A DNA stretch of 64,000 bases from an uncultured Phaeodactylibacter sp. (GCA_913057245.1 CAJXNH010000020.1:1-64000); one strand, 5' to 3'; positions 28,376 to 53,940 are shown, counted from the first letter of the stretch. The notes: generated by a model from the sequence alone, not told the origin. Program-made: numbers and translations.

Positions 28376-28584
28376 AAGTGGTGGCTGTGGATGATCTCCA
28401 AAATGTTCAGGGTGCTAATTTCAGGGCGTGTGGAACGACAAATGTAAGGTATTGGGCTTATTTGACAAGCAAGTTGCTTAAAAAAATCGCTTTGCACGCA
28501 GCCGACAGATATCCACATATCCATTCAGCTTTCCTAAAAGTTTTCTAACTTCGTCGACTGAATTCTTTACCAAACAACACGATT

Positions 28585-29382
28585 ATGAATCGAATTGTAC
28601 TGATTTTCTTGGGGGTTATCCTCGCCAGCGTTGGGTATGCGCAGGATTGCCAGCCGGACGAAACAGTTCCGGATTCGGTGGTGGTTGCTCCACTGCCTTA
28701 CAATGAAATGCAACGCCCTGAGGGCGGTATTGCGGATACGGCTTGTGTGGGCAGCCCGTATGAGTTTATCTTTACCTTCAATATCCCGGCGGTCTATAAT
28801 GTGAGCGGTTTTGAAGTGCCGCTCATTGATGTGAGCATCCCTGCGGAAGATGGGATTGATAACCTGCCGGCCTCTATGGATTATGTTTGTAATCCGCCCA
28901 ACTGCGTTTTTGCCGCCGAGACCAAAGGCTGCATCCTGGTGTCTGGTACAGCCACGGCTGATGAAGTAGGTCAGCACGACCTGACGATCGCGGCAGTCAT
29001 TAATGCCGGGCTAGAACTTGAAGTTACAGTCCCTGGCGATCTGGAGGCAGATGCCCACTACTATCTTTTTGTAAAGGAAGAAGGTAGTACCAACTGCTTC
29101 TCCAACACCAACGAGGCCTTTGCAGCAGACTTTGGGCTGAGCAACCGCCCCAACCCATTCGGTAACCTCACGCAGGTGGTGGTGGATGCCAAACAGTCGG
29201 GCCTGTACCAGTTCTTCGTTACGGATTTGCTGGGCCGTCAGGTGCACCAACAGCAAATTCAGCTGATCGAAGGTGAAAACCACATCGACTTCAACGGTAG
29301 CCAACTGGCAGAAGGCATGTACCTTTATGGTATTACCGATGGCCGCCACGCCGCTACCTCCAAAATGATTATCAACCGGTAG
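28585..29382 (+). CDS. T9SS C-terminal-domain secreted protein
   Basis: 265 aa with a signal peptide (MNRIVLIFLGVILASVGYAQ) and a C-terminal CTD (NRPNPFGNLTQVVVDAKQSGLYQFFVTDLLGRQV...GMYLYGITDGRHAATSKMIINR). Confidence 0.7.
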   Translation: MNRIVLIFLGVILASVGYAQDCQPDETVPDSVVVAPLPYNEMQRPEGGIADTACVGSPYEFIFTFNIPAVYNVSGFEVPLIDVSIPAEDGIDNLPASMDYVCNPPNCVFAAETKGCILVSGTATADEVGQHDLTIAAVINAGLELEVTVPGDLEADAHYYLFVKEEGSTNCFSNTNEAFAADFGLSNRPNPFGNLTQVVVDAKQSGLYQFFVTDLLGRQVHQQQIQLIEGENHIDFNGSQLAEGMYLYGITDGRHAATSKMIINR

Positions 29383-29558
29383 TACCCCTGCTGGGTCTCC
29401 AAGAATTCAGTCCTTCTGACAAGGAGCGGGGTGCTGCCCACCCTGCAGCGTGAAGCCCCGCTCCGACACCCTATAAAATTTTCTTTACTGGCAAACCGTT
29501 CCTGTACAGTGCCTTGTGCTGCACAAGGGTGGTCTTGTCGTTTAAAATTCAGAAGGAC

Positions 29559-31358: not shown

Positions 31359-31651
31359 GCTCCTGAAAGAGGAGCATAAAAAAGATTGTGTCTTAACTGT
31401 TAAAATATATAAAAAATCATATATTGAGGGGCTAAACAAGCAAGAGCAACCTAAAAAGCCATGGCGCGGTGTTCGGTCCGGAGCAGCTACTGATTTGGTA
31501 CTCAGCAGGGTATTCGAAAAAAGTGTAGCTTTGCGGGCTAAACACTGCGCATAATCCCAAACTGAATTTGGCACCGCAAGTCTGAACTCCAGGTCTTAGA
31601 TAGTCGGTCCGATGGTGGAATATCCCACCGTACTCTTGCGAACCCTGAATT

Positions 31652-33580
31652 ATGACAGTTGAGATTAGAAGAAAAGAAATAGGCAACCTTCTACTTGAGA
31701 ACATCCCGGATATCCCTGTCCTGCTGAAAGACCGGCTTCAGTTGTATCAGCAGACACGCGAGGCGGCTTTGGCCGATTGGCTGCCCGATGGCAGTGGGTT
31801 ACTGATCTCAACCCGGTTTGGAGAAGCTGCACAGATTCACGAAGTGGTCCGCCCCGGGCACTTCCGTAAACAACTGACCTTTTTTGACGAGCCCGTTTAT
31901 ATTGCCCGCACCTGCCCCGATGCTGACCGTCAGGGTTTTTTGTTTGCGCGGGATACGGGTGGCAATGAGGCTTATCAGTTGTACTTCTATGATTTGCGAA
32001 AGCAGGAATACCGAATGCTGACGGATGGGGAATCCAAGCACAGCAGTGGCGTATGGAACCGGGAGGGCAGCGCTTTTATTTACAGCAGCACCAAGCGCAA
32101 CGGTATTGATCAGGATTTGTACCTCTACGACCTGGCTGGTGGTACAGGTGAACGACTGGTCTTTACCGGCAAGGGCTATTGGTACCCGGTCGCCTGGGCA
32201 TCAGGCGGGCGGTATGTGACCGTCATTAACTACCGGTCGATCAATGAAAGCCACCTGCATATCCTGGATGTGGAGACCGGGGCATTGGAAACCATTCAGG
32301 CGGATCCGAATATTGCCTGTCGCTCCGGCAGCTGGTCCGCCGATGGCCGCCGGATTTTCTACACGTCTGATGCGGATAGCGAATGGCGCGGGCTGATGGT
32401 TTACGACCTGGATACACAATCGAAGCAAAAGATTACTCAGGGGCTGGACTGGGAAGTGGAAGGCTTGCAGCTTTCCGCGGATGGCACACAGCTGGCCTTT
32501 GTCATCAATAAGAACGGCATTTCCGAATTGTACCTTTACGATACGGCGCAGGCGTGCTACGAGCGGGTTGAAGTTCTGCCGGAAGGCGTCATTGCCGATA
32601 TGCGCTGGCATCCCAAAACGCTGCGCCTTGCCCTGACCATCAATACGCCACAGGCGCCGGCCGATGCCTATGTGCTGGATGTTGAAACGATGGACCTGCA
32701 GCAGTGGACCTTTTCAGAAGTGGGTGGATTAGACCGCAAAGGGTTTGTCAAGCCCAGGCTCATTCATTATCCGACTTTTGATCAGGTAGGGGGTAAAGAC
32801 CGGGAGATTCCTGCCTTTTACTACCGGCCGGAGCACAAAAACGCGCCCATGCCGGTGCTGATTTACATCCACGGCGGCCCGGAGAGTCAGTTTCGGCCCG
32901 GCTTTTCACCGGCTTTTCAGTACTACCTTAAAGAACTTGGGGTGGCTGTGCTCGCTCCCAATGTGCGGGGCTCTTCGGGCTATGGGAAGCACTACCTCAA
33001 GCTGGATAATGGCTTTAAGCGGGAGGATTCTGTGCGGGACATCGGGGCGCTGCTGGACTGGATTGAACAGCAGCCTGAGCTGGACAGCCATCGTGTGGCG
33101 GTTATGGGCGGTTCCTACGGTGGCTACATGGTGCTGGCGAGCATGTCGCACTACAACGACCGTCTTTGTTGCGGGATTGATATCGTGGGGATCAGCAACT
33201 TCATTACCTTCCTGAAGAATACCAAGTCTTACCGCCGCGATCTGCGCCGGGTGGAGTACGGGGATGAGCGTGATCCGGCTATGCGCCGGCATCTGGAGCA
33301 GATTTCTCCGACGACTAATGCTCATAAGATTACCAAGCCGATGCTCATCGTGCAGGGGCAGAATGACCCCCGGGTGCCGGCCAGTGAGGCGGAGCAAATG
33401 CTGCGGGCAATCCGTAAGAATGGGGGAGAGGCCTGGTACCTGCTGGCTAAGGATGAGGGGCATGGCTTCCGGAAAAAGTCGAACCGTGATTTTTACAATC
33501 AGGCGGTGATCTTGTTTCTGCAGACTTATCTGATGCAGCCGCTGGAGGTGGGGGTGCCTGAGGCGTTGGTGACGACTTAG
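31652..33580 (+). CDS. S9 family serine peptidase (prolyl oligopeptidase/dipeptidyl-peptidase-like) with N-terminal beta-propeller
   Basis: 642 aa. The C-terminal alpha/beta-hydrolase carries the nucleophile elbow GGSYGGYM, with Asp/His downstream (...QGQNDPRVP...DEGHGF). Confidence 0.8.
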   Translation: MTVEIRRKEIGNLLLENIPDIPVLLKDRLQLYQQTREAALADWLPDGSGLLISTRFGEAAQIHEVVRPGHFRKQLTFFDEPVYIARTCPDADRQGFLFARDTGGNEAYQLYFYDLRKQEYRMLTDGESKHSSGVWNREGSAFIYSSTKRNGIDQDLYLYDLAGGTGERLVFTGKGYWYPVAWASGGRYVTVINYRSINESHLHILDVETGALETIQADPNIACRSGSWSADGRRIFYTSDADSEWRGLMVYDLDTQSKQKITQGLDWEVEGLQLSADGTQLAFVINKNGISELYLYDTAQACYERVEVLPEGVIADMRWHPKTLRLALTINTPQAPADAYVLDVETMDLQQWTFSEVGGLDRKGFVKPRLIHYPTFDQVGGKDREIPAFYYRPEHKNAPMPVLIYIHGGPESQFRPGFSPAFQYYLKELGVAVLAPNVRGSSGYGKHYLKLDNGFKREDSVRDIGALLDWIEQQPELDSHRVAVMGGSYGGYMVLASMSHYNDRLCCGIDIVGISNFITFLKNTKSYRRDLRRVEYGDERDPAMRRHLEQISPTTNAHKITKPMLIVQGQNDPRVPASEAEQMLRAIRKNGGEAWYLLAKDEGHGFRKKSNRDFYNQAVILFLQTYLMQPLEVGVPEALVTT

Positions 33581-33629
33581 GGCTTTTATTGTTCCTGTTT
33601 CAGGGGTTTTTCCTTAAGGTTTTATTGAA

Positions 33630-33960
33630 TAGGGTGCGACTTCTACGAAGTCGTTGGGCTTTGTTGGTGTGGGGGTGAGTAGGATGCGACTTCTACGAAG
33701 TCGTTGGGTCTTCTTTTTGTGGAGGTTGAGTAAGGTGCGACTTCTGCGAAGTCGGTGGGCTTTGTTGTTGCCTGGGTTAGAAGGGTGCGACTTCTACGAA
33801 GTCGGTGGGCTGAGCTGATGTCGGGTATATAAAGATGTGCCTTCTCCGAAGTCTGACCGCCCTTTCCATATAGCTTTGTGACTCTATCTGGCTTCGCCGT
33901 GCAGACAGGTTCTGCGAATTCGGTGGGTTGCGATGTTGCCGGGGATACAAAATTACAGAT
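33630..33960. repeat. tandem array of ~50-bp direct repeats (4 good and 2 degenerate copies), each containing the palindrome GCGACTTC-TACG-GAAGTCG
   Basis: Units start near 33632, 33683, 33735 and 33783, with decayed copies at about 33836 and 33900. Both the palindromic core (rGGTGCGACTTCTACGAAGTCGkTGGGCT) and the T-rich/G-rich 'spacer' (ttgttggtgtgggggtgagta vs ttctttttgtggaggttgagta vs ttgttgttgcctgggttagaa) are conserved between units. Confidence 0.8.
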
Positions 33961-34216
33961 AAGTTATTGAATGATTGTGTATAACAAATTGCACAAAAAC
34001 AGAAAGTGACCACCGGTTATCAAAGTGCGATAGCTGCTGGGGTATAGCTTCCCGCTCTGCTCCAGCTTATCCACGAGATGCATAGGCAGGGCGCTCAACT
34101 CTGCACATCAGAAGCTTGTTAGGTGTTCTGTACTCAGGTGGCCGAATTCTTAGATATGCGAGTCACGGTATTACCAATTTACCCGAACCAGGTCAAAACC
34201 ACAAATCAAAGCTCGA

Positions 34217-35545
34217 ATGGCGATAGAAAAATCAACACCGGCTTCCGGCCTTTCCAGGAGAGGGGCTCCCCTGGCGGCCTCCGCTGCCCGGGTGGACATG
34301 GACCTCTTCTTTGAAGCTGCTCAAAATCTGTACGATCCGGAGGAGAATCCCGAAGGGTACTTCACCCTGAATGTGGCGGAGAATGCCCTGATGATCCCGA
34401 TGATGAAGGCGCGCATAGATGAAATTTTGCAGCAGGGCGATGTTCCCGAATGGGCTTTCCAGTATACCGATCCGAATGGGCACCCGGAGGTCCGGGAGAC
34501 CGTAGCTGCATTTATGGAGCAATACCTGTGCCAATGTCCCATTGCGCCTGATTCCATCGCCTTTTCTGCCGGTGCTGCAGCGACCATAGAGGTAAGTACA
34601 TTTATGCTGGCAGACGAAGGGGATGTGGTGGTGATTCCGGCTCCCGCTTACCCCATGTACACCAATGATGTGGGCTTGAAAAGCGGATTGCAGCGCTATG
34701 ATTTGCAAACGCATTACCACCCTGCTGATCATGGTGATATTTCCCCATTAACCACTGCACATCTGGATGCTGCCTGGGCGGACATCAGCGGGCAGGGTCA
34801 GAGGTTCAAAATCCTGTTGCTGACCTCACCGGATAACCCCACCGGCTGCATGTACTCGGAACAACAGCTGAGGGAGATTGCCGAGTGGTGCATGGCGCAT
34901 GAGGTGCACCTGGTTGTCAGTGAAATTTATGGTTTGTCGTTGGTGAATATCGAGGACGATGACATCCGGGCAGATTATACGCCGGCAACGGTGCCCCAAT
35001 CTTTCGCACAGCTCATGGCGGAGCTTCAAAGCGATTACCTGCACCTCTGGTATGCCCTGTCCAAGGATTTTGCCATGTCCGGATTCCGGTTTGGTATCGT
35101 ACATTCCTTGAATGAAAGCTTCCTAAAGGGTTTTGGGAATGTCAATATCCCGCAGATGGTCTCCAACCTTGCGCAGTGGGTAATCGGGGAGCTGATGAAA
35201 GATCACGCCTTCCTGGAGCGCTACATCGTAACCAACAAGGCCCGCCTTACCGGGAGCTACAAAGCAGTCGTCAAGGCCCTTCGGGAGTTGGAAGTGCCCT
35301 ACGTCCCCAGCCGCGGTAGCCTGTTTGTGTGGGCCGATTTTTCCAAATACCTAAAAGAGGATAGCGAAAAGGGGCAGGAAGACCTTTGGATGGACATTTA
35401 CCACAGTACCGGCATATTGCTGACGCCCGGTGCCGGATTCCAGCATAAGAAGTATGGGGTGTTTAGGATAGTGTATACTACATTGCCTTTGAGCCATTTG
35501 GAGGTGGCGCTGGAGCGGTTGAAGGGCTATTTTAGGAACGGCTAA
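34217..35545 (+). CDS. PLP-dependent aminotransferase, class I/II (ACC-synthase-like subfamily)
   Basis: TLNVAENALM..., the PLP-lysine region LWYALSKDFAMSGFRFGIV (SxxKxxxxxGxRxG), and a fold-type I pattern throughout. The start may be at MDLFFEAAQ (34298). Confidence 0.75.
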   Translation: MAIEKSTPASGLSRRGAPLAASAARVDMDLFFEAAQNLYDPEENPEGYFTLNVAENALMIPMMKARIDEILQQGDVPEWAFQYTDPNGHPEVRETVAAFMEQYLCQCPIAPDSIAFSAGAAATIEVSTFMLADEGDVVVIPAPAYPMYTNDVGLKSGLQRYDLQTHYHPADHGDISPLTTAHLDAAWADISGQGQRFKILLLTSPDNPTGCMYSEQQLREIAEWCMAHEVHLVVSEIYGLSLVNIEDDDIRADYTPATVPQSFAQLMAELQSDYLHLWYALSKDFAMSGFRFGIVHSLNESFLKGFGNVNIPQMVSNLAQWVIGELMKDHAFLERYIVTNKARLTGSYKAVVKALRELEVPYVPSRGSLFVWADFSKYLKEDSEKGQEDLWMDIYHSTGILLTPGAGFQHKKYGVFRIVYTTLPLSHLEVALERLKGYFRNG

Positions 35546-35837
35546 GGCAGCTTAATAACAGATAGAAACAGCAATACCCCACTTTTTCAAGCTTTTGCCC
35601 TGTCGTCCAGTTTCCCACTGGGCGATAGGTTTCCTAAGCCTGGTCTATATTAACCCATCACCTCGCTGGAAGCGCGACGACGGGAGTGGGGCGAAGTCAA
35701 TGCAAAAAACATAATACTCACTCAGTCAGCAGCACCACTGACACCCGCTGCCCGCACACTCGTTCAGTAGTCGCCCGGGCTTACAGGAGGATTCGTATCT
35801 TTCTGCCGTTTCCAGGATATGTTAAACCTTGTAGCTT

Positions 35838-37616
35838 ATGACTAAATGCGCGCTTACGCTGATTGTGGGGCTGTTTTTGAGCTTGAATGTGCTGGCACAA
35901 AAGGTAGATGCTGACCTTCCGGCGGAAGTGGTCTATGAGATGAAGCGACAAATATTAAAACGATACGCATACTTTAGCAGCTTAGCTTTAAGTAATAACT
36001 ATAGGGAATCAGACAGAATTTCATCCCATAATAGGGTGAAAAATGTTGACAATGTAGTATTTGGATATTTTACGGATTTGCCTAAGATGTATATTAGAAA
36101 ATCGGGCTTAGGAGCTGTTCCTGGATCCAATTTCCACTTATTTGAAGTGGGATTTAATCGTATACCAGAAAACAAAGACATAAATGATTGGTCAGCGGGA
36201 CAGATAAAAAGGCTTTTTCAGGATAAACTTGGATTGTTTTTAGTGGATATAGATACTAAGGTTGTCATGCCTATTTATCCTACCTTTAAAAATGACATCA
36301 TAGCATACTTTAATTCTGTGCCTAATCGCCCTGATTCATATGTATTTTTTGTTAAAGCTTTGTCTTACTTGGATGAGGATGTAGAAGTTAATATTGATCG
36401 ATCGTCGGAGGACTCTATTTTTATAAATAGGATTAGGCGAACAGAAGATGGTTTTTTAAGCCATTATAGGTATCAATTTTCATTTGATGATCCAGGGAAC
36501 TATAAAATTGAGAAAATAAAAATTCCCAAACCCAAACAAGCGAAAGTTGAACTCGCTCCTCGGTCAAGCGCATACCCTAAGCTTGAAATTCCTGACTTCA
36601 GCGGCACAGAAGACAAAAAGCGCTATCTCTTCGAAGCCCTTATGGAGAACCTCTACCTCTATAAATTTCATCAAAAAGTCAGCGCTTTGCCTGATAGTGT
36701 AGACCCGGAGACTTTGTTAGACAGCCTAATTCCAGACTACGATGTATACCTGCCTCGTATGTACCACCTGAGGTATGGCTGCTGCTGGGTAAGTGAGCCA
36801 CGGGTAGCGGATTTGCAGGCAAGGCTGCCAGAGATGATGAGCTTTAGCTATGATTATGAGAGGGAGCCTTATCTTAACGGAACTATCGATTATAAATTTG
36901 TTTCGGCTGAACACCGGTTTTATTATCGTGATATCGAGTATTATAAAATCTACGTGGACACCCTGCTTTTATGGCACAAGAGAGAAGACTCACAGTTTGC
37001 GGATTCCATTAGCTGGGACGGTTTTAACAATGACAACATTTATGATACCTACTATCAGCCCCAATGGAAAGCCATAACCGAAAGGGCGTTGCGTTATTCC
37101 TATCCTTTAGTAGTAAGCCCGGAGCCATTGCCAGCAAGGTACCTTTCCCAATGCGCCTGGGCTAACAGTCTAGGCGCGGCTAATAACCACTATGACTATC
37201 CCTATCATTACATCAAGCAGCCTCGTGCCAATCATTATCTGCTGGCATTGGACACGGAGACCCGGGATGTGTACTTCATAAGCGGGAAAGATATCTTTTT
37301 GACCAAAACTGTCCCTTTATATCTGCCCTATGTGGAGGACAAGGAGGCCAGGAGGCGTGTTCCTGTGCATCGTGATCCTGATTACAGCTACCTCTATAAG
37401 AAAGGAGATTGGCGAATGCTGTTCACCTACATTCAAGACCGCCTCTACCGCTACCTGGTAGAACGGCTGGACCGCAGCAACGTCATCTACGAAGATGAGG
37501 AGAAGGTAGTGCTGCGCTGTAAGGGGAAGGAGTACCAGTACCTAAAAGAAATCGAACTGGAAGTCACCCTCTACTTTGATGATCCGGAGAATTTGGAGGT
37601 CCGGAAATTAGAATAA
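35838..37616 (+). CDS. secreted hypothetical protein, Tyr-rich, partly encoded by an AT-rich segment
   Basis: 592 aa with a signal peptide (MTKCALTLIVGLFLSLNVLAQ). About 36.0-37.1 kb is markedly AT-rich relative to its flanks. No recognisable family. The last ~24 codons are duplicated at 41176-41256. Confidence 0.6.
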   Translation: MTKCALTLIVGLFLSLNVLAQKVDADLPAEVVYEMKRQILKRYAYFSSLALSNNYRESDRISSHNRVKNVDNVVFGYFTDLPKMYIRKSGLGAVPGSNFHLFEVGFNRIPENKDINDWSAGQIKRLFQDKLGLFLVDIDTKVVMPIYPTFKNDIIAYFNSVPNRPDSYVFFVKALSYLDEDVEVNIDRSSEDSIFINRIRRTEDGFLSHYRYQFSFDDPGNYKIEKIKIPKPKQAKVELAPRSSAYPKLEIPDFSGTEDKKRYLFEALMENLYLYKFHQKVSALPDSVDPETLLDSLIPDYDVYLPRMYHLRYGCCWVSEPRVADLQARLPEMMSFSYDYEREPYLNGTIDYKFVSAEHRFYYRDIEYYKIYVDTLLLWHKREDSQFADSISWDGFNNDNIYDTYYQPQWKAITERALRYSYPLVVSPEPLPARYLSQCAWANSLGAANNHYDYPYHYIKQPRANHYLLALDTETRDVYFISGKDIFLTKTVPLYLPYVEDKEARRRVPVHRDPDYSYLYKKGDWRMLFTYIQDRLYRYLVERLDRSNVIYEDEEKVVLRCKGKEYQYLKEIELEVTLYFDDPENLEVRKLE

Positions 37617-38700
37617 AAAAACAGCCACAGTCCGGGACTCCGGGCTGTGGCTGTACTATGCAAACAATAGGTTCGTCAGAAAATTTACTGCCGCACCACC
37701 TTTAGTACTTCCCGGTAGCCATCCTGCGTGAAGACTTCCAGGAAGTAAAGCCCTGCGGGCAGATAGCTGGCGTCCCAGTCTATGGACTGCTCTCCTTCGC
37801 GCAGGGGCGTTTGAGCCAGCTGCTGCCCAAACTCATTGAACAGAGCCGCTGTACCATCCGCTGGAAGTGCTGCAGAGAATTGCAGGGTGAAGGTACGGCG
37901 CACGGGGTTGGGCACTATGGTGGCCTTGAGGACCTCGGGCTGCGCGTTTTCCCAGTATAGGCTGTCGGGGGCGGAAAGATTGATACCGCCTGAATTGTTT
38001 CGGAAGCGAATATCCCCAAAGGTCGCAGAAGCGGAGCCGTTCGGGTCAGTGGCAAATACGGCCAGCCCCATTTCCACACACGAGTTCATGGGCAGGTAAG
38101 CCTGATAAAAGGTTTGCCAGGAGCCATTGCTGCTGGAACGGTACCGGGCGCGAATCAAGTCGCCGTCACGTTGCAGGCGCAGCCAATAAGGGAAAGACGC
38201 CTGTATCAGCGTGCTGCTTTTAGGCCCGTTGTCTGTAGTACGGATTTCCCGCCGGATCAAATTGGTGAGGTTAGAATACACCGCTACCATCTTAGCGCCC
38301 GGGGCATCGCTCTCGCGTATCATCAGTCCGGCGTAACCGCCGTCCACGCTTTCGATACGTGCCTGAATACCACCGTCATTGCACAGCTCTATGTTTGCAA
38401 AAGCGAGGTTGTCGGCATTTTGAGTCAGGAGGTTGTAGCTGCCGGTGCTTATGGTCAAGTCACCGTTGTTGGGGCTATCGGCAGAGCAGAGGCTGTAGTT
38501 GAAGTCGCTGCCATCTCCCTGATCCCCAATATTGGTTGCCGACCATCCTGCAGGCAGTGCGTTGCCTTCCTCTACGGAAACAGTAGCGCTGCATTGGTCT
38601 GATGCACCATTGAAATCGGTGATGGTGTAGGTGACATTAATGGTACTGCCAATGTCATCACAGTCGAAGAAGCTCTGGCTGATGGATTCTGAAGCAAGCC
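37546..38700. repeat. segmental duplication copy A (near-identical to 41176-42334)
   Basis: Both copies share the same sequence from 'aaagaaatcgaactggaagtcaccc' through the terminator hairpin and the 3' 1.04 kb of the minus-strand gene. The embedded ORFs 37836..38099/38114..38602 are identical to 41475..41738/41753..42241 in the ORF track. The copies diverge after 'gaagcaagccc' (38700 / 42334). Confidence 0.9.
37614..37656. terminator. bidirectional Rho-independent terminator
   Basis: AAAAAAA-ACAGCCACAGTCCGG-gac-TCCGGGCTGTGGCTGT is a stem of about 15 bp with one mismatch. There is an A-run on the plus side (a T-run for the minus-strand gene ending at 37685). It also lies 1 nt after the stop of the plus gene. 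Confidence 0.7.
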
Positions 38701-40780
38701 CGCACTCCGTGATGCTATTGCCACCAATCTCTTCAGGCAGCAGGGTGCCCTGCCCATTGGGGGCTAGTACCACTGTCACCTCCTGGCAGATAGCGGATGC
38801 AGGCGCACAGCAGAAGTTATTCGGATCTTCAATCACAATCTGTGCCTCGCACTGAGCTGTGAGCTGATTGGAGTCATCCGTTACAATGAGGGTGACAATG
38901 TGGAAGTCTCCGTCTTCACAGGTAAAGGTGAGTTCGGAGTCCGTGCTCAGGGAAAAACTGCCACATTCGGTGTAGGAACCGTCATCAAGCGCTTCTTTTG
39001 ATACCGTGACGAGACCGGATTCCTGCATTTCGACGGTGACGTTCTTACATTTTGCTGTGGGGGGCAGGTCGTCCACTACCGTAAGTTGGAACTGACACCT
39101 ATTCTTGTTGCCGGCTTCATCTTCGATCGTCAGTTCAATAGTGTTTGTACCAAGCATGTAGGAAGGTTGCCCGTCCTCGCCTGTCATAAGGCTGGTTTGC
39201 AAAGCATCTACTCCGCTACAGTTGTCTGACATCAGAATGGTGTCCCAGGGTATACCAGTGTAGGTGCATCCGCCTTCGGAAATGCTCACGATGGTATCCG
39301 CCGGGCATTCGATTAGGGGCGCTTCCGTGTCCCCCTCTACCGTGGTGGTATCGCTGGCGGTACAATCCTGCCCGTTGATGATAGTGACGATGTAATCTCC
39401 CGGTAAGGCCGCGGCGATATACGGGTTTTGCTCATTGCTGCTAAAGCCGCCGGGCCCCATCCAGGACCAGGAGATGGCTTCTCCGCCGTTTTCGGACAAG
39501 TTGACTTCGTCCCCGGCACAGATTGAGCCGTCGCTGTCATTACTCGCTTCTGCAATAGTGGTGCAGGGGATTTCAAATGCTCCGATATCCGGCAGCCCGG
39601 TACGCGCTACTCCGTTCAGGTCAAAAGCAGGGGCGCCTTCTGTACTGCCGGCATTACGGGCCGGAGAGGTAATCCGGGGTGGAGCATAGTAAGAGGTATC
39701 AAACTGCGGGTCCTCATCCATTACGTTCTCACCCGGATAAGTGCCATCGAGTATGCTGTGGCTGATTTTCAGCGTGGGCTGCGGCTGAGAAAAGTCGGTA
39801 AAGGAGAGCTGGTCTGTGATGAGGTTCGAGTTCCCCCATACGATGGTGTTATAAAGTACGATAACAGAATCTTTTGGGTCGCCTGAACCAATACCGAAAT
39901 CGTTGTCAGCCTGTATCATGAAGACCGCCTTGCCGGTGGCATGGTTGTCGTCAATGATGGTGCAGTTGATGAAAGCGGCAGATCCGCTACTGAAGTTAAA
40001 GTTTTCTTCATAAGAGACGAAGAAATTCTCATTCGGTGAAGTATTGTTGACGAACAAGCAGTTGATGAAGCGGGCGTCTCCCCGGGGTACCCAGACTGCG
40101 CCTGCCTGCGAGTCCGCATAGTTATCTCGTATAATGCAATTGGTGAATTCGGCTTCAGCACCGCTCGCCACAATGATGGCGGCACCAATGTTGGCCGCAT
40201 TTTTTTCAATGGTGCAGTTAGAAAAGCGTATATTTTTACTAGAGGACTGGACGGTTACTGCTCCGTTCGCGACTTCTGTGTAGTTGTTGCGAAAGACGAG
40301 CCCGTCTACAGTTATATTTTCCTTTTGGTAGTCGATAAAGAACATAGAGAACGCATTGCCTTCCGTGGTGCCGGACTGGTTGATGTCTCCGTCTATCACG
40401 GTGAGGTGCTCCTTCCAGTTTCGTTGATTGCGCACCGTCTCCTGCCCGCTAAAGCCACCGTACAGCGCGAGGTTAGAGCGCTTGACGATAAACTGGTTTA
40501 TTACATTGTTTGTAATGTCTATTCCCTCGTCCGGGTAGTAATGCCCTGCGGCAAGCCATATTTCGCTGATTTCGGGGGCGTTCTCTGCCAGGTGCAAAGC
40601 ATGTTGCAGATTATTGAATGCCTGATCCCAAGAGTACCCGTTTCCGGAAGAAGGTAAAGAAGGGTTGACATAAAGCACGCTGTCGGTTGGTGGCAGAAGC
40701 GCTCCCTCAATTGGGACTGCTCCCCAACTAAGTCTGGAAAAAGCCAGGAGAAGGCATGCCATGCATATCCATTTTTTCAT
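37685..40780 (-). CDS. large T9SS-secreted surface protein with parallel beta-helix region, HYR domain(s), a conserved ~230-aa pre-CTD module and the T9SS CTD
   Basis: 1031 aa with a signal peptide (MKKWICMACLLLAFSRLSWG) and N-x-x-G/I-x-x-N beta-helix repeats. A HYR-like domain reads PLIECPADTIVSISEGGCTYTGIPWDTILMSDNCSGV.... The C-terminal 345 aa are identical to those of the 2118-aa protein and end in a T9SS CTD (...ATIVPNPVRRTFTLQFS...GLYFLEVFTQDGYREVLKVVRQ). Confidence 0.85.
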   Translation of the reverse strand: MKKWICMACLLLAFSRLSWGAVPIEGALLPPTDSVLYVNPSLPSSGNGYSWDQAFNNLQHALHLAENAPEISEIWLAAGHYYPDEGIDITNNVINQFIVKRSNLALYGGFSGQETVRNQRNWKEHLTVIDGDINQSGTTEGNAFSMFFIDYQKENITVDGLVFRNNYTEVANGAVTVQSSSKNIRFSNCTIEKNAANIGAAIIVASGAEAEFTNCIIRDNYADSQAGAVWVPRGDARFINCLFVNNTSPNENFFVSYEENFNFSSGSAAFINCTIIDDNHATGKAVFMIQADNDFGIGSGDPKDSVIVLYNTIVWGNSNLITDQLSFTDFSQPQPTLKISHSILDGTYPGENVMDEDPQFDTSYYAPPRITSPARNAGSTEGAPAFDLNGVARTGLPDIGAFEIPCTTIAEASNDSDGSICAGDEVNLSENGGEAISWSWMGPGGFSSNEQNPYIAAALPGDYIVTIINGQDCTASDTTTVEGDTEAPLIECPADTIVSISEGGCTYTGIPWDTILMSDNCSGVDALQTSLMTGEDGQPSYMLGTNTIELTIEDEAGNKNRCQFQLTVVDDLPPTAKCKNVTVEMQESGLVTVSKEALDDGSYTECGSFSLSTDSELTFTCEDGDFHIVTLIVTDDSNQLTAQCEAQIVIEDPNNFCCAPASAICQEVTVVLAPNGQGTLLPEEIGGNSITECGLASESISQSFFDCDDIGSTINVTYTITDFNGASDQCSATVSVEEGNALPAGWSATNIGDQGDGSDFNYSLCSADSPNNGDLTISTGSYNLLTQNADNLAFANIELCNDGGIQARIESVDGGYAGLMIRESDAPGAKMVAVYSNLTNLIRREIRTTDNGPKSSTLIQASFPYWLRLQRDGDLIRARYRSSSNGSWQTFYQAYLPMNSCVEMGLAVFATDPNGSASATFGDIRFRNNSGGINLSAPDSLYWENAQPEVLKATIVPNPVRRTFTLQFSAALPADGTAALFNEFGQQLAQTPLREGEQSIDWDASYLPAGLYFLEVFTQDGYREVLKVVRQ

Positions 40781-41175
40781 AAGTACATATTTGTTTTAAA
40801 ATAAGGAGGGCTTGACCCCGGAAAGCACAAAAAAAAGCTATATCTCTCTCTAAAGCTAAATCGTTAACACCTCATAAACTCTCAAATATGCAAGTAGCTG
40901 AATAACAATGCTTAGGGCTGAGCTTTGTTCTCACTTAGGCAGCTGGATTAAAAGGCAATGAGGGGTAAATAAGGGGTGTCAGGTTTGTTGTAAAGCCAAT
41001 TTTGCCAAGTTGTTCCTTGTGGTCAATAGCAGGATATAGCCAGGAGAAAGTCACTAGATCGTTGCTTGGACACTCTTGGTTTTACTCCTTGAGAAGGCAG
41101 CATACCGTCTCTAATCATTTGTCTTTATAGGGTTGGCGATAAATGCGGCGGCGCAGGAGCATACTCTGAGAGGGA

Positions 41176-41256
41176 AATACCAAAAAGAAATCGAACTGGA
41201 AGTCACCCTCTACTTTGATGATCCGGAGAATTTGGAGGTCCGGAAATTAGAATAAA
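41176..41256 (+). pseudogene. duplicated 3' fragment (last 24 codons plus stop) of the 35838..37616 gene, carried along by the segmental duplication
   Basis: Translates KEIELEVTLYFDDPENLEVRKLE*, identical to the C-terminus of the 592-aa protein. Upstream sequence is unrelated and no start codon is present. Confidence 0.7.
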
Positions 41257-42334
41257 AAAACAGCCACAGTCCGGGACTCCGGGCTGTGGCTGTACTATGC
41301 AAACAATAGGTTCGTCAGAAAATTTACTGCCGCACCACCTTTAGTACTTCCCGGTAGCCATCCTGCGTGAAGACTTCCAGGAAGTAAAGCCCTGCGGGCA
41401 GATAGCTGGCGTCCCAGTCTATGGACTGCTCTCCTTCGCGCAGGGGCGTTTGAGCCAGCTGCTGCCCAAACTCATTGAACAGAGCCGCTGTACCATCCGC
41501 TGGAAGTGCTGCAGAGAATTGCAGGGTGAAGGTACGGCGCACGGGGTTGGGCACTATGGTGGCCTTGAGGACCTCGGGCTGCGCGTTTTCCCAGTATAGG
41601 CTGTCGGGGGCGGAAAGATTGATACCGCCTGAATTGTTTCGGAAGCGAATATCCCCAAAGGTCGCAGAAGCGGAGCCGTTCGGGTCAGTGGCAAATACGG
41701 CCAGCCCCATTTCCACACACGAGTTCATGGGCAGGTAAGCCTGATAAAAGGTTTGCCAGGAGCCATTGCTGCTGGAACGGTACCGGGCGCGAATCAAGTC
41801 GCCGTCACGTTGCAGGCGCAGCCAATAAGGGAAAGACGCCTGTATCAGCGTGCTGCTTTTAGGCCCGTTGTCTGTAGTACGGATTTCCCGCCGGATCAAA
41901 TTGGTGAGGTTAGAATACACCGCTACCATCTTAGCGCCCGGGGCATCGCTCTCGCGTATCATCAGTCCGGCGTAACCGCCGTCCACGCTTTCGATACGTG
42001 CCTGAATACCACCGTCATTGCACAGCTCTATGTTTGCAAAAGCGAGGTTGTCGGCATTTTGAGTCAGGAGGTTGTAGCTGCCGGTGCTTATGGTCAAGTC
42101 ACCGTTGTTGGGGCTATCGGCAGAGCAGAGGCTGTAGTTGAAGTCGCTGCCATCTCCCTGATCCCCAATATTGGTTGCCGACCATCCTGCAGGCAGTGCG
42201 TTGCCTTCCTCTACGGAAACAGTAGCGCTGCATTGGTCTGATGCACCATTGAAATCGGTGATGGTGTAGGTGACATTAATGGTACTGCCAATGTCATCAC
42301 AGTCGAAGAAGCTCTGGCTGATGGATTCTGAAGC
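41176..42334. repeat. segmental duplication copy B (near-identical to 37546-38700), including a second copy of the terminator hairpin at ~41253-41296
   Basis: See copy A. By eye it is identical at DNA level over about 1.15 kb. Confidence 0.9.
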
Positions 42335-45300
42335 AAGCCCGTCTGCGCAGAAGGTGGTGCTTTCTGAAGACGCAAAAGCGCCACCGGAGGCCAGAGTGTT
42401 ACCCAGTTCATCGCTCAGGCTGTAGGAGCCACTGCCGTAAGCACAGCAGATACCATCACCGGCAGAATCAAAGATGGTAAAGGTATAATCGCCACCCGAG
42501 AGGCTGAACGTTTCCGTAACGGTAGAGCCATTGCGCTGTGAACCATAGGAGCCGCCCGAAGCTACGGTAGTACCACCATCAGTCACGGTCCAGGTGGTTT
42601 CACTGGGATAGTTGTCGAGTACGATAGTCAGGATGAAGTTGTTGCCGTTACTGCAGGGGGCGCACCCCATGATGCAGGGGGCGCACCCCATGATGCTATT
42701 GCCACCAATCTCCTCAGGCAGTAGGGTGCCCTGCCCATTGGTGTCTAGTACAACTGTCACATCCTGGCAGATAGCAGATGGCGGTGCACAGTATTCGCTT
42801 ACTCTAAAATCATCGAGCAGAATACCACGTCCGCGTTGTGGCGTTTCATTACTTGTCGTGTCCAATACCAGGTCCAAGCTGTCCTGATCGTTGGCGTCGG
42901 TTACGGTAAAAGCAAACTGAAGGTAATCAGATAAGCTTGGCAGCAGAATCTCTTCGGTTGTCCACGTGGACGCCAAATTCTGGTTAGGAGAATATTCCGC
43001 AAGTTGTGTCCACTCTCCACCTTCTGCTGTTCTGTACAACAAGTTTAGCGTTGGCTGATAATTCATAATACTGTCCAAAAAAGTTGGGTCAAAATTAAGG
43101 CTCCACTTGAAAAGCGAGCCTTCAAACCCAGGGTCAAGATCTTTAACTGATAAGGTCCACTCTCCGTTAAGAGGGCAGCCTTCTAGGCTGGAGAAGTCTC
43201 CTTCGGGCTTATAACTGCCCTCAGGGAAGTAAGAAGCAGAAACTTCAGAGGTCAGGCCGTCAATTAAGCTGGGAACAGTAGTGTAAACGTGAGACGGGGT
43301 AAAGCTCAAGTGTTCATCCCTGAGCGTGCCAAAATCGGTACTCTCCATGCTGAAGCAGTACTCATAAGGGGTGCCAGGCGTCAGGTCGTTACGACCTATA
43401 AAATCCGTTCGAATAAATGGCTCGCCTAAATGTTCCAAGATATGGGGAGAAGAAAAGTGTTTAATTATTTTAGCAGATTGCCCATTAGGGCAGGATAGCT
43501 CAATATCCAGGTTGTCATAACGTTCGTGCTCCAGGCTAATGCAAACACTGGAAAGCATGGACTCAGTGAGTGTGGCATCCCTCGGGAAGCCACTGAGCTT
43601 AATGGTAGAAGGGCTCGTAAGTGGAAAAAAAGGTATGATTCCATCCACCCGGCCAATCGCTAAGTTCTCGTTAGCTACAGCTGTTTGTGGCGATGGACCT
43701 ACCGACGATATAAGGCCTTCTAAAATGTTATAGGCAAAAGAAACCACAGGAACCTCAGAAAACGAACTGACATCAAATAATGGCGAAATAAGTGTGTCTT
43801 TCCTGACTGTTGGACTGATAAATGCCGCCATGTTATCACCATTAAGGGGTTGGTTAGCCAATCCGGTAGTATCGAATACCTTTTCGGGGAACTGCCAGGC
43901 TGAGGGGCTGCTGGATTGAAGTGTCCAACATTCTGGTTTGACTCCAGAACCTTCGAAACCTGTAAAATATGGACTCCTAAGTGTAAGTGTCCAAGGAGAA
44001 CCACATGAATAGGTTAGTCTAACAGTGGAGGACGGGCGAGAGAGGTGCCCATCGCAAATGGCGATAACCTCAAACCTGTAATTGCCGTCTCGGTCGAAAA
44101 AAAATAACTCGGCGTTAAATTGATTAGTAGAAATAAAGCTATACCAGTGAGGCGATCCCTCCAGAGCATACCGGACGAGAAAAGAGTCCGCATCTGATGA
44201 ATCCCAGCTTAGGACAGCAACATCGACGTCGGTTGACCATGGAAAAAGACTAGCTTGAACATTCTGAGGTGGTAAACAATCCTCTTCTTCTTGAATATGA
44301 ATATTGTCAATCCTGGCAAAAGCATTGTGATACCCTTCAAATCGGACCACGTAACTTTCGGCGTTGGTGTTAAGTTTTGGCAGCGGTATTCTTGCTGTAG
44401 CCCAGCCATTTGTGGGGGTTTTAAAATCCACCAGGACTTTTTCACTCAAAGGCGACGATGAACCAAACGATTGATAGGCCACCCTAAAAGCAGGAGCAGG
44501 CTTGAAAGCGATACTGCTGGTACAGAAGCTGGTACTTTCGCTGAAGTCGAAGCTGCCGCCCGATGCGATCACTGCTCCGGTGCCATCTGTAAGGGTATAG
44601 GAACCATTGCCAGCTAAACAGCAAATACCGTCCCCGTAGCTGTCATTAATAGTGAAGGTATAGTCTCCTGGCTCCAGGCTGATGTTCTCTGTAATAGTGC
44701 CTGCTGTGTACAAGCTGAAATTCCTATCGTAGGGGCCACCGGAAGCTACTATAGCACCGTCAGCATCAGAGACCGTCCACGAAGTTTCATCAGGAAAGGT
44801 GTCGACATCGATGGTTAGGGTCAGGTTGAGTCCGTAACAAGAGGAGCAGGGTGCACAGCTGGACCCACCGCAGTCTATGCCACTCTCATCACCGTTTTGG
44901 ATGCCATCATAGCAGGATGGCGAAACGGTCGTGCTGCAGGTGGTGGGTGCTTCCTCAATCCAGTAATCAAAAGTTAACAGGTGGTTTTCCGCTTCGTTCC
45001 AAAGGATAGATGGTGATTCTAAACGGGCTGTGTGCTGTGTGTCCGAAAAGCAATCATAATTCCCGGTGAAAGTTGCTCTGCGCCCCCCTGTAACCTCTTC
45101 AAATAATAACGGGAATCCATCTTGTATCCAGCATCCTTCAGGAGCTGAAGCATTTTCAAAGCCCTGGAATACAGGAAAAGGTGAGTATTCACCACATAAA
45201 GTTCTAAATTCTAAGGGCTCTGAAGGATTGCTGAAGATATCGGCGGATCCACAAGACTCAGTGATGACGTAAAAATCGTAAGGGGTATCTGATTCTAATC

Positions 45301-47680
45301 CCGTAGCCAGATATAGAGAAGTATCAAGCCCTGAGATGGTTTGACCTTGACCGGGTGAAAAACCTCTGAGCCCAATCTCGATGGCGTACTCTAAGGCATC
45401 ACCGGGAGCACTCCAACTTAATAAAGCAGAAGTTTCAGATAGGCTGTCAACAGACAGTACTGTTGGCGCTGTACACTGTACCTTTTCATCTGCTCCAATA
45501 TAGGGATGCGCTGGTCTGGTGTGGCCATCAATATCATCACTAATACCGGGAATTGTTATGCCCTGTCCCTGTACCGCTAAATTGAACCCAGAGAGATGCA
45601 GATCATTAGTACTTACGAACACAATGCTGTCAGAGACGGAGTTGGCATTGTAAGATGAAGATGCGGTCTGCCATTCTTCCAGCGAGTTGTAAAATTGGTT
45701 GGCCACCACCGCGAGGGCTCCATTGCCGTCAGTGCGGTAGTACAGATTATAGTCGAGCACATCATCGTTATTGGTTGGAGCATCGAGGTCAATGGCTTCC
45801 GAAGTATTGGAGATGAAAATGTTGTTCCGAATATCATACCCATCCGAAGAGGAATTGACCCATAGAGCCTGATCATCATCAGCAAGGCCCGTATTGAAAA
45901 ATAAGTCCACACTATCGGAACCTTGTAAAAAGTATGCATCCCCGGTACCGAATGCCCGCCCCATATTGTTTGAGACATTTGCTCGATCGGCAGCCCCCAT
46001 AGATGAAGTATTGATGCTGCTTAAAAAATAAGCATAAGTTGCGGCGCCCAGAACTTGGTTTTTCTGAACTATTGGTGATTTTGAATTCGCCACCCAGATT
46101 CCGTAAGAAGAACCAGCAGGCGGCATTTCATGGATTGTATTACCGGTTGCAACAGGACTGTTCAGGTTTCGAAAATGAATACCGGTAGATTGAGCTGAAA
46201 TTTCGCACCCCTCTACGGTGATATTATTTCCATCAGTTACCTGACTTGAAGAACCATTTATCCGGATACCGGTGCCTCCACCGTTAATCTTTACATTTTT
46301 GATAAGACCGTTGTTCATGCTGTTGCCGGTGGAGCCTAGTGTAAATTGATTGCCGTTAGCTACAATACCTGCACTGTTGGAACTTGTGTTATTGACATTA
46401 ATGATACAGTCCTGGATCGTATTAAAATCGGCCTCATTCCAAAGTTGAATGCCCCAGGAAGTCGAGCTGCCCGTGTGCCGGATGGTCAAGTCTTCTATTG
46501 TTATATAGTCGGCTCCGTTAAGCTCTACTGCCATAACACCGGAACCAGAGCCATCATAGGTAATTATGGTTTGATCTGCACCTGCTCCGGAGAGTGTCAC
46601 CGTATTGATCTCGCTGGCTCCCTCATAAGGGAACAGTTTAATTTGTTCCTGGTAGGTACCTGGGGCAATGTTGAAAATGACGGGGCCGTTTACACCGCAA
46701 GTGACTAAGCCGGCGATAGCGTCATGGATTGTCTGGAAGTCAGCATCACCACTACTTCCCACACTGTAGGAACCAGAGAGTTGGGATTCACAACCTGAAG
46801 AAAAGCCAAAGGGGCCTGCCCAGTCCTGTACCGGAGCGCCAGCGCAGTTGGTCCTGATGTATAAGTCATAGGCAGTCAGAGGGGTTAAGCCTGTTACAGA
46901 GATTCCATTGCTGGTGGCATTACCAAAGTTGATTACGTTAGTGCCCTGAGAAGCGCCCTGCGCTACAATTTCCCAATCATAAGAGGTCCCACAGACATCT
47001 GTCCAAGTCAGGTCTATTTCGGTTCCTGCTGAGTTGGCGGTGCTCAAAGAGAATGGGGGGATACATTGGGGAGGGGCATCATAAACCGCAATGTCATCAA
47101 TGGCAGCATCTGAAAAAAAGTCTACTCCTATTGTGCCTATGATCCGGAACTTGAAGTTGGAACTACCGGCATAACTACAAAGCGTAATCTCTGCCTTGAG
47201 ATAACTGTCCGATTCCGAGGTTTGCTGCTCTCCACTAATAGACCAAAGAGGAGTTGACCAGGTGGCCCCACCATCATCAGAAGCTTCTACGGATATGCTT
47301 CCCATTGATTGCCCATACATATGATAGTAGAATTCGAGGGCAGGGTTGCTCAAGTTGGAAAAATCAAATACGGGCGATTCCAAAATGGCTTGTTTTTCAA
47401 AGCAGCTACTCCCTTCCATATAGAGGTACTTGCCAGAGCCACTTGTGTTATCCCCGCTAGGGCCTGTTAGGGAAGAAGTCGTGCCATTTGCATCGACAAT
47501 CCAGTCTGTATCATCATCTGTTACATTTGTAAATCCTCCGGAGAGCGTGCAAATACTAGAGCAGGATTTGTCGCATTCCGTTTCTGTTTCAAATGTTTCC
47601 ACAAAGGGAAATGAACTGATTTGTGCATTGAGGTTTAGGCCCATGAGTAAGACTAGGCCAAAAAGTAGATTCTTTTGCAT
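41324..47680 (-). CDS. giant modular T9SS-secreted surface protein
   Basis: 2118 aa with a signal peptide (MQKNLLFGLVLLMGLNLNAQ). The N-terminus has an N-terminal MAM domain (...GKYLYMEGSSCFEKQAILESPVFD...EFYYHMYGQSMGSISVEASDDGGATW) and FN3-like segments, then an extensive parallel beta-helix region, then a second MAM-like segment. A Cys-rich motif [23 protein letters not shown] follows, then two copies of the ~100-aa DNYP.ET.WT...GDGICC.YG module. A recombinant HYR-like junction (CAPPSAICQDVTVVLDTNGQGTLLPEEIGGNSI) precedes the C-terminal 345 aa, which are identical to the 1031-aa protein and include the T9SS CTD. Confidence 0.85.
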   Translation of the reverse strand: MQKNLLFGLVLLMGLNLNAQISSFPFVETFETETECDKSCSSICTLSGGFTNVTDDDTDWIVDANGTTSSLTGPSGDNTSGSGKYLYMEGSSCFEKQAILESPVFDFSNLSNPALEFYYHMYGQSMGSISVEASDDGGATWSTPLWSISGEQQTSESDSYLKAEITLCSYAGSSNFKFRIIGTIGVDFFSDAAIDDIAVYDAPPQCIPPFSLSTANSAGTEIDLTWTDVCGTSYDWEIVAQGASQGTNVINFGNATSNGISVTGLTPLTAYDLYIRTNCAGAPVQDWAGPFGFSSGCESQLSGSYSVGSSGDADFQTIHDAIAGLVTCGVNGPVIFNIAPGTYQEQIKLFPYEGASEINTVTLSGAGADQTIITYDGSGSGVMAVELNGADYITIEDLTIRHTGSSTSWGIQLWNEADFNTIQDCIINVNNTSSNSAGIVANGNQFTLGSTGNSMNNGLIKNVKINGGGTGIRINGSSSQVTDGNNITVEGCEISAQSTGIHFRNLNSPVATGNTIHEMPPAGSSYGIWVANSKSPIVQKNQVLGAATYAYFLSSINTSSMGAADRANVSNNMGRAFGTGDAYFLQGSDSVDLFFNTGLADDDQALWVNSSSDGYDIRNNIFISNTSEAIDLDAPTNNDDVLDYNLYYRTDGNGALAVVANQFYNSLEEWQTASSSYNANSVSDSIVFVSTNDLHLSGFNLAVQGQGITIPGISDDIDGHTRPAHPYIGADEKVQCTAPTVLSVDSLSETSALLSWSAPGDALEYAIEIGLRGFSPGQGQTISGLDTSLYLATGLESDTPYDFYVITESCGSADIFSNPSEPLEFRTLCGEYSPFPVFQGFENASAPEGCWIQDGFPLLFEEVTGGRRATFTGNYDCFSDTQHTARLESPSILWNEAENHLLTFDYWIEEAPTTCSTTVSPSCYDGIQNGDESGIDCGGSSCAPCSSCYGLNLTLTIDVDTFPDETSWTVSDADGAIVASGGPYDRNFSLYTAGTITENISLEPGDYTFTINDSYGDGICCLAGNGSYTLTDGTGAVIASGGSFDFSESTSFCTSSIAFKPAPAFRVAYQSFGSSSPLSEKVLVDFKTPTNGWATARIPLPKLNTNAESYVVRFEGYHNAFARIDNIHIQEEEDCLPPQNVQASLFPWSTDVDVAVLSWDSSDADSFLVRYALEGSPHWYSFISTNQFNAELFFFDRDGNYRFEVIAICDGHLSRPSSTVRLTYSCGSPWTLTLRSPYFTGFEGSGVKPECWTLQSSSPSAWQFPEKVFDTTGLANQPLNGDNMAAFISPTVRKDTLISPLFDVSSFSEVPVVSFAYNILEGLISSVGPSPQTAVANENLAIGRVDGIIPFFPLTSPSTIKLSGFPRDATLTESMLSSVCISLEHERYDNLDIELSCPNGQSAKIIKHFSSPHILEHLGEPFIRTDFIGRNDLTPGTPYEYCFSMESTDFGTLRDEHLSFTPSHVYTTVPSLIDGLTSEVSASYFPEGSYKPEGDFSSLEGCPLNGEWTLSVKDLDPGFEGSLFKWSLNFDPTFLDSIMNYQPTLNLLYRTAEGGEWTQLAEYSPNQNLASTWTTEEILLPSLSDYLQFAFTVTDANDQDSLDLVLDTTSNETPQRGRGILLDDFRVSEYCAPPSAICQDVTVVLDTNGQGTLLPEEIGGNSIMGCAPCIMGCAPCSNGNNFILTIVLDNYPSETTWTVTDGGTTVASGGSYGSQRNGSTVTETFSLSGGDYTFTIFDSAGDGICCAYGSGSYSLSDELGNTLASGGAFASSESTTFCADGLASESISQSFFDCDDIGSTINVTYTITDFNGASDQCSATVSVEEGNALPAGWSATNIGDQGDGSDFNYSLCSADSPNNGDLTISTGSYNLLTQNADNLAFANIELCNDGGIQARIESVDGGYAGLMIRESDAPGAKMVAVYSNLTNLIRREIRTTDNGPKSSTLIQASFPYWLRLQRDGDLIRARYRSSSNGSWQTFYQAYLPMNSCVEMGLAVFATDPNGSASATFGDIRFRNNSGGINLSAPDSLYWENAQPEVLKATIVPNPVRRTFTLQFSAALPADGTAALFNEFGQQLAQTPLREGEQSIDWDASYLPAGLYFLEVFTQDGYREVLKVVRQ

Positions 47681-53890: not shown

Positions 53891-53940
53891 TAGATTTTAT
53901 TAACTGATCTTTCGCATGCGAAAGATCAGTTAATAAAATC
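53891..53940. repeat. perfect 50-bp palindrome (inverted repeat with no spacer)
   Basis: AGATTTTATTAACTGATCTTTCGCA|TGCGAAAGATCAGTTAATAAAATCT equals its own reverse complement over all 50 nt. It abuts or overlaps the stop codon of the minus-strand gene ending at ~53939. Confidence 0.9.

Follow-up and report, generated by a model that had tools for sequence, protein, structure and literature searches.

Two adjacent type IX secretion cargo genes of a Phaeodactylibacter share an identical 3' region, probably maintained by recurrent gene conversion

The paralogous gene pairs tufA/tufB of Salmonella and E. coli and omp2a/omp2b of Brucella are kept alike by RecA-dependent non-reciprocal exchange, and their copies within one genome are closer to each other than orthologues between genomes are. 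Neisseria pilE/pilS and the Mycoplasma genitalium MgPa repeats are silent-cassette systems of antigenic variation, in which gene conversion acts on segments of surface proteins. The gingipain repeats of Porphyromonas gingivalis are dispersed loci, not adjacent ones. In that species, the genes rgpA, kgp and hagA encode type IX secretion system (T9SS) cargo with combinatorial adhesin modules, for which homologous recombination, gene conversion and allelic exchange have been invoked (PMC5266723). Here we analyzed a 64,000-nt stretch of DNA from an uncultured Phaeodactylibacter sp. (GCA_913057245.1 CAJXNH010000020.1:1-64000; the whole stretch is called the window below). It contains two neighboring genes in the same orientation, A and B, whose products have unrelated passenger regions and identical last 338 residues (345 had been given in a preliminary description of the window). 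Concerted evolution by recurrent interlocus gene conversion, with the tract bounded by heterology, is in our judgment the probable explanation.

As with tufA/tufB and omp2a/omp2b, the A and B copies within a genome were closer to each other than orthologues between genomes. Those pairs are whole genes of the same function, whereas A and B are homogenized only over the 3' third or sixth of otherwise unrelated multidomain genes. As with pilE/pilS and MgPa, conversion appears to act on surface-protein segments, with variation between strains. Unlike these systems, A and B lack donor cassettes without promoters, each copy belongs to a gene predicted to be expressed, and the exchange homogenizes the copies within a genome. 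Like rgpA, kgp and hagA, A and B are T9SS type A cargo genes of Bacteroidota with near-identical C-terminal modules, and the C-terminal-most adhesin domain of the P. gingivalis genes is also strain-allelic (PMC5266723). In contrast to rgpA, kgp and hagA, A and B are adjacent and in direct orientation. Their common unit comprises a DUF1349-like fold, the C-terminal sorting domain (CTD) itself, a terminator and a stub of a neighboring gene, and the limit of the tract coincides with a module nested in an immunoglobulin (Ig)-like domain. The host is also different: a marine bacterium of the order Saprospirales that is free-living and associated with algae. The A/B tail is a clear case of a well-known process, not a new mechanism. 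It provides comparative evidence that, outside Porphyromonas as well, gene conversion can homogenize a C-terminal region shared by T9SS cargo genes, here a lectin-like domain and its sorting signal. A further suggestion is that conversion tracts can be stopped by a domain nested within another domain.

The window was compared with itself by an offset scan and BLASTN. An exact direct repeat was found, with copy A (R_A) at 37544-38702 and copy B (R_B) at 41183-42341, at an offset of 3639 nt. A separate repeat search gave the same result. The repeat can be extended leftward by five more bases, to 37539/41178, at the cost of one mismatch. Because it is 1159 nt long and exact within 64 kb, a chance origin is excluded. 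Two near-identical blocks had been described before. Their identity was borne out without a single mismatch (1159/1159 nt) and the limits of copy A were right to within 2 nt, but copy B had been placed 7 nt off, at 41176-42334. The repeat contains the 3' end of a plus-strand gene (U592), a hairpin terminator and, from genes A and B on the minus strand, the 1015 coding nt at the 3' end. It also covers non-coding DNA, namely a 68-nt intergenic spacer and the terminator.

The locus was then compared with contigs from other samples. All came from metagenome assemblies, and the record names (k141, NODE) mark at least four of them as short-read. Two k141 contigs from ENA, L001 and L002, were each 99.96% identical to the window and ended inside copy B, at the equivalents of window positions 41456 and 42031. 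Three more, L012 (ENA contig NODE_2353, ERZ650152), L013 (a 328-kb JGI contig) and L014 (ENA scaffold_396), were retrieved via the cluster members of WP_282781043.1, and each contained both copies. From copy B, the ENA contig L007 (NODE_710, UENT01000710) ran across the A-unique part as far as the edge of copy A. Comparison with related strains, as foreseen in the preliminary description, thus placed both copies in three independent P. xiamenensis-like assemblies, and copy B with the edge of copy A in a fourth. The same left and right junctions were present in L001, L002, L007, L012, L013 and L014, and the flanks of the diverged strains differed from the window by 0.5-1.4%, indicating that the block was duplicated before these strains diverged. 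No N gaps were found in any of the loci. When the window was aligned with L001 over 15.6 kb, every difference fell within the repeat.

Variable sites were tabulated for eight repeat copies (A and B of the window, L012, L013 and L014), and support for the pairing of copies was obtained by a mutual-nearest-neighbor bootstrap. Over the 1159 nt, A and B did not differ in the window or in L014, and they differed at three sites in L012 and five in L013. Copies of different genomes differed at 9-15 sites. In 17 of the 24 variable columns, A equaled B in every genome while the genomes differed; a single column set the A copies from two genomes apart from the B copies of those genomes. The two copies within a genome were mutual nearest neighbors in 89-100% of the bootstraps. 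The window alleles at 37992, 38053, 38197 and 38490, derived as judged from outgroup paralogues, were present in both copies. Likewise, both L012 copies carried a replacement of the loop NGS by LYA (three codons, 38122-38128).

Among L012, L013 and L014, the 1970 nt unique to A differed at 1-3 sites versus 12 sites in the adjoining R_A, and the history changes sharply exactly at the repeat border. The repeat diverged at a fast, B-like rate. Because the tract is identical at non-coding and synonymous sites as well, selection on the protein cannot account for the identity, and purifying selection alone was ruled out. The pattern has the marks of interlocus gene conversion: the tract was more alike than the neighboring homology (0 mismatches in 1159 nt versus 12 in the adjoining 110 nt), the duplication predates the divergence of the strains, and copies within genomes were closer than copies between genomes. 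The coding differences of the tail among strains comprised 16 nonsynonymous and 5 synonymous changes, with multi-nucleotide changes clustered at 38122-38128 and 38450-38490. No donor for these clusters was found in paralogue D or in the L004 and L005 homologues; the L012 cluster matched none of them, and the L001 cluster matched partly.

The right edge of identity is the exact start of a Cys-rich module that interrupts the Ig-like domain of B within a loop. This module (42342-42681, minus strand; 340 nt, 113 aa) forms the right-hand limit of the tract, and gene C has a counterpart of 84% identity at 51467-51787; the module had been described as an insert of about 360 nt. The junction residues are ...NSITEC/GLASES in A, and ...NSIMGCAPC-(module)-FCAD/GLASES in B. 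Beyond the module lies the N-terminal half of the Ig-like domain of B (42682-42791, minus strand). As described before, homology with A resumes here: the segment matches 38701-38810 at 89.1% identity (12 mismatches in 110 nt), and these 110 nt, which appear unconverted, end at the N-terminal edge of that Ig domain. In L012, the 110-nt piece was also about 90% identical, indicating that conversion does not cross the heterology. The homology between A and B is one Ig-lectin-CTD unit plus its 3' flank, and its 3' 1159 nt have a history different from, and much younger than, that of its 5' 110 nt.

A Pfam search with the nested 113-aa module returned no family. Among the strains the module occurred as three allelic types of 340, 322 and 298 nt, with identities down to 79.5%. 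The strains are otherwise about 99% identical, so module swapping is indicated. Among the modules compared, the full 340-nt length was present only in the window-type allele (window and L002). Cys-rich modules of about 113 aa (...LTI.LD.YP.ET.WTV.D...GDGICC...) are repeated in genes B and C, at 42342-42681, 44507-44848, 51441-51782 and 52002-52343. The nested module is edged by a perfect tandem duplication of 21 nt (42652-42696, 2.1 copies), in which MGCAPCI is encoded twice.

The left edge lies within U592 (35838-37616, plus strand), which encodes a 592-aa protein with a signal peptide and no Pfam or NCBIfam family. Its homologues, from Phaeodactylibacter and related metagenome-assembled genomes (MAGs), are all hypothetical proteins. 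The last 23 sense codons and the stop codon of U592 (37544-37616) are inside R_A. The corresponding 24 codons beside B had been reported as an orphan fragment at 41176-41256. The fragment is present, but its limits are 41183-41255 (plus strand; KEIELEVTLYFDDPENLEVRKLE followed by the stop), and it has no coding sequence upstream. An nhmmer search with a profile of six U592-type 3' regions found no U592 homology in 40781-41182 at E <= 100, none could be traced upstream of about 41161-41178, and the residual similarity to U592 at the left edge of copy B, about 5-22 nt, is doubtful. A former full U592 paralogue beside B is unproven. In the window, U592 has a private 6-nt insertion exactly at the left border. 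The left edge of the window copy B reads 'tacca', as does the uninterrupted U592 allele of L014, and the B copies of other strains read 'ataaaa'. Such strain-specific left edges fit separate conversion events.

A 15-bp GC-rich hairpin followed by a U7 tract (37621-37654, minus strand; dG about -33 kcal/mol, z = -6.7) is predicted to be the intrinsic terminator of gene A. Its second copy (41260-41293, minus strand) lies downstream of gene B, as judged from the block identity and the fold of copy A. The terminator had been called bidirectional. It is canonical for the minus-strand genes A and B, with their U7 tail; for the plus-strand U592, it is no more than a hairpin, as no U tract follows. 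Unique intergenic sequence (40781-41182) separates R_B from the start of gene A and presumably contains the promoter of A.

For the recombination mechanism and the direction of transfer, we infer the following scheme. A and B would carry an old paralogous C-terminal unit consisting of the Ig-like domain, the DUF1349-like lectin fold, the type A CTD, the terminator and the U592 stub. RecA-type homologous recombination between the copies, 3.6 kb apart, would repeatedly overwrite one with the other, non-reciprocally. This may keep the 1159-nt core free of differences within a genome, even as strains diverge in it. The 340-nt heterology in the Ig-like domain of B would set the right limit. The left limit would be the point in the 3' stub of U592 at which homology ends; there the window lineage has its private 6-nt insertion. 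Since a stub of U592 lies beside B and the gene is complete only next to A, the founding transfer would have gone from the context of A to B. Later conversions may go in either direction. Given the lack of homology on the left, the founding event itself may have been a join of illegitimate or microhomology type; alternatively, a larger duplication may have lost its edge through later decay. Circle integration (Campbell type) was also considered as the origin of the block; it needs a prior context with U592, the repeat and A in this order (U-R-A). The earlier suggestion of recent gene conversion or cassette-type exchange is upheld as to conversion, given the concerted sites in four genomes, but the process would be ongoing or recurrent rather than one recent event. 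Its cassette part finds no counterpart in the form of dedicated machinery: there were no recombinases among the genes of 25.8-59.9 kb, no inverted repeats of 40 nt or more in 34-50 kb and no silent promoterless copies.

Several observations weigh against recurrent conversion. All of the comparison contigs are metagenome-derived, at least four of them from short reads as judged from the record names, and the window itself is probably from a MAG contig. The arrangement U592, repeat, A-unique part, repeat, B-unique part (U-R-Au-R-Bu) is a simple loop that can be traversed via one collapsed repeat edge, so the interior identity and part of the concerted signal could be imposed by assembly. The k141 contigs L001 and L002 both stop within copy B. 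In L013, all differences between A and B are in the left 460 nt, at a spacing of 83-114 nt from the left border, and the right 695 nt are identical; this spacing may reflect the phasing reach of short reads. Finally, no homology was detected at the left junction further than about 5-22 nt, which means that a plain two-sided conversion cannot have been the founding event.

The duplication could accordingly be real while its perfect identity and much of the concerted pattern stem from short-read repeat collapse, the true copies differing more and evolving independently. The probable MAG origin of the window and the breaks of L001 and L002 speak for such a collapse, and the A/B differences that were resolved in L012 and L013 lie near the left border, within the reach of short reads. 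We nevertheless consider it improbable. Four assemblies from different samples, in three record-name styles (NODE, JGI Ga, scaffold), all have near-identical copies within the genome. The divergence of the repeat follows relatedness: L014 and L007 have identical flanks and differ at two repeat sites, and the window and L001 have identical flanks and differ at four. Bubbles of equal coverage normally break contigs rather than merge silently, and L013 is a 328-kb contig. The edges of the repeat, about 100-140 nt on each side, are anchored in unique flanks and are identical or nearly so. Moreover, the assemblies of L012 and L013 do resolve differences between A and B.

The 100% identical copies of the window would also be obtained if its lineage had undergone just one segmental duplication, very recently, in which the 3' end of A was copied onto B by an illegitimate or microhomology event with no continuing exchange. 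The left junction, which has a short 'TACC(A)' match and no extended homology, agrees with such an event. Yet strains whose flanks differ from the window by 0.5-1.4% have these junctions too, the copies within genomes differ at 0-5 sites, with strain-specific variants in both, and no close relative was found with a different tail on B and without the U592 stub. We regard a single duplication as very unlikely. An event of this kind may account for how the block arose, but not for its present state.

Least credible of all is a dedicated variation system that moves the block, whether a mobile cassette, a site-specific shufflon, a diversity-generating retroelement (DGR) with its template/variable repeat pair, or silent-cassette antigenic variation. 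Such a system would suit the predicted surface-exposed lectin-like domain of the tail, with its 16 nonsynonymous and 5 synonymous strain differences, the clustered changes at 38122-38128 and 38450-38490, and the hypervariable segments in the neighbors U592 and B. However, no recombinase, integrase, transposase or reverse transcriptase was found among the genes of the window from 25.8 to 59.9 kb, and inverted repeats of 40 nt or more were absent from 34-50 kb. Neither copy is a silent cassette, since each is part of a complete gene with a terminator of its own. Against a DGR, the changes between strains involve all bases rather than adenine specifically, and the two window copies are identical.

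The gene tables for 25.8-59.9 kb also agreed with the earlier statement that no insertion sequence (IS) or transposase lies beside either copy. An IS- or transposon-mediated duplication was rejected on the absence of both transposase genes in that range and inverted repeats of at least 40 nt in 34-50 kb. A plain tandem duplication of a 3639-nt unit was rejected as well: the second unit matches the first over its first 1159 nt only, and from 42342 onward it is unlike the sequence from 38703 onward except for the 110 nt at 89%.

Gene A (37685-40780, minus strand) encodes a protein of 1031 aa with a choice-of-anchor Q/pectate-lyase-like passenger, HYR Ig-like domains, a DUF1349-like domain and a T9SS CTD. 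It is 99% identical to WP_282781043.1, a 'HYR domain-containing protein [Phaeodactylibacter xiamenensis]'. Gene B (41324-47680, minus strand) encodes 2118 aa with MAM, fn3 and P-domain regions and repeated Cys-rich modules ahead of the 338-aa tail in common with A. By eye alone, the N-termini of A and B resemble signal peptides (MKKWICMACLLLAFSRLSWGA... and MQKNLLFGLVLLMGLNLNAQ..., respectively).

Within the repeat, on the minus strand, the tail encodes the C-terminal half of a HYR-like Ig domain (38567-38701), with the breakpoint in a loop (A: ...NSITEC/GLASES...). Next comes a concanavalin-type β-sandwich of about 200 aa resembling DUF1349 (37967-38560; the 'pre-CTD module'), assigned from a weak match to Pfam PF07081 and a fold search. 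The tail was modeled using AlphaFold 2, with a mean pLDDT (predicted local distance difference test) of 75.7 and values of 80-90 within the DUF1349-like domain. The best Foldseek matches of the model in PDB were the DUF1349 structures 3O12 and 3MEP_A, with target template-modeling scores of 0.76 and 0.71. A sequence search of PDB with the tail gave no match. The repeat also encodes a type A CTD of the T9SS (37688-37915), recognized with TIGR04183 and PF18962. The TIGR04183 scores, 27.7 bits for A and 27.6 for B, are above the cut-off of 23 and bear out the CTD noted in the preliminary description. For PF18962 the tail scored 23.7-26.2 bits, just below the gathering score of 27; the values for A and B were 23.7 and 22.9. 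Judging from the phylum (Bacteroidota, Phaeodactylibacter), the genome likely contains the T9SS machinery (PorK/L/M/N, SprA, PorV, PorU). Further T9SS cargo genes are close by, namely C (50553-53411, an M43 peptidase) and D (53940-55718). The tail of D has the same architecture as the A/B tail, at 46% aa and 68% nt identity.

Under recurrent conversion, two proteins with unrelated passengers would always display the same fast-evolving lectin-like module together with the same secretion and anchoring signal. The tail might further be a co-evolving display unit, with diversifying or frequency-dependent selection acting on the lectin domain and conversion spreading variants to all tail-bearing cargo. 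The entire locus, with its mosaic U592 alleles, the exchangeable nested module of B and the common tail, would then be a recombination-driven surface-variation island in marine, alga-associated members of the Saprospirales. The ratio of 16 nonsynonymous to 5 synonymous differences, the loop replacements and a between-strain divergence about tenfold that of the A-unique sequence are suggestive of such diversification. We propose this extension tentatively and hold it to be doubtful. If it is true, all tail-bearing surface proteins of a cell would switch their anchor-proximal exposed module together.

The repeat has practical consequences too. That both k141 contigs of the near-identical strain end in copy B is a practical sign that it fragments short-read MAGs. 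Since it breaks such assemblies, it can mislead MAG annotation, orthology calls and strain typing by single-nucleotide polymorphisms at this locus. In addition, direct repeats of 1.16 kb can delete or amplify gene A by crossover. In L012, gene B was called as two open reading frames (688 and 1420 aa), suggesting a frameshift or a sequencing error. On the same contig (107-571 and 3122-9441), similarity to the window stopped at 50104, and a DDE_Tnp_4 transposase gene was located past an AraC/TPR regulator, on the gene C side of the window.

U592 is a mosaic, hypervariable gene (35570-37616; compared in L005, L006, L008-L011 and L013) with 'hypothetical' homologues throughout. Across contigs, nucleotide identity was 84-95% both in the 5' region (about 35570-35960) and in roughly the final 175 nt (37425-37604), and the center was only 36% identical at the amino acid level. 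Breakpoints recurred at 35880/35960, 36597 and 37425. L005 carried three tandem U592 paralogues. L013 was 98.4% identical to the window from 37425 on, yet it had a U592 allele of 36% identity. To the left of U592, L013 (1-7679) was 92.8% identical to the window (27882-35564), compared with the 98.4% right of 37425, suggesting that U592 is a recombination boundary between segments of different history. The AlphaFold 2 model of U592 had a pLDDT of 50.6, too low for a fold search, and a sequence search of PDB returned insignificant matches only.

Other repeats were found in the window. An intergenic array at 33626-33853, between genes for an S9 peptidase and an aminotransferase, repeats a 50-nt unit about 4.4 times, with the short hairpin CGACTTC-TAC-GAAGTCG in every unit, and resembles repetitive extragenic palindromic (REP) elements in appearance. 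A perfect, AT-rich palindrome of 52 nt with 26-bp arms (53891-53942) is located between C and D, where it overlaps the stop codon of D, and is presumably a terminator. Gene C contains three copies of a 75-nt tandem repeat (51795-52021), which encodes a motif ending in (D/S)ETGVDCGG; the same motif precedes module copies in B.

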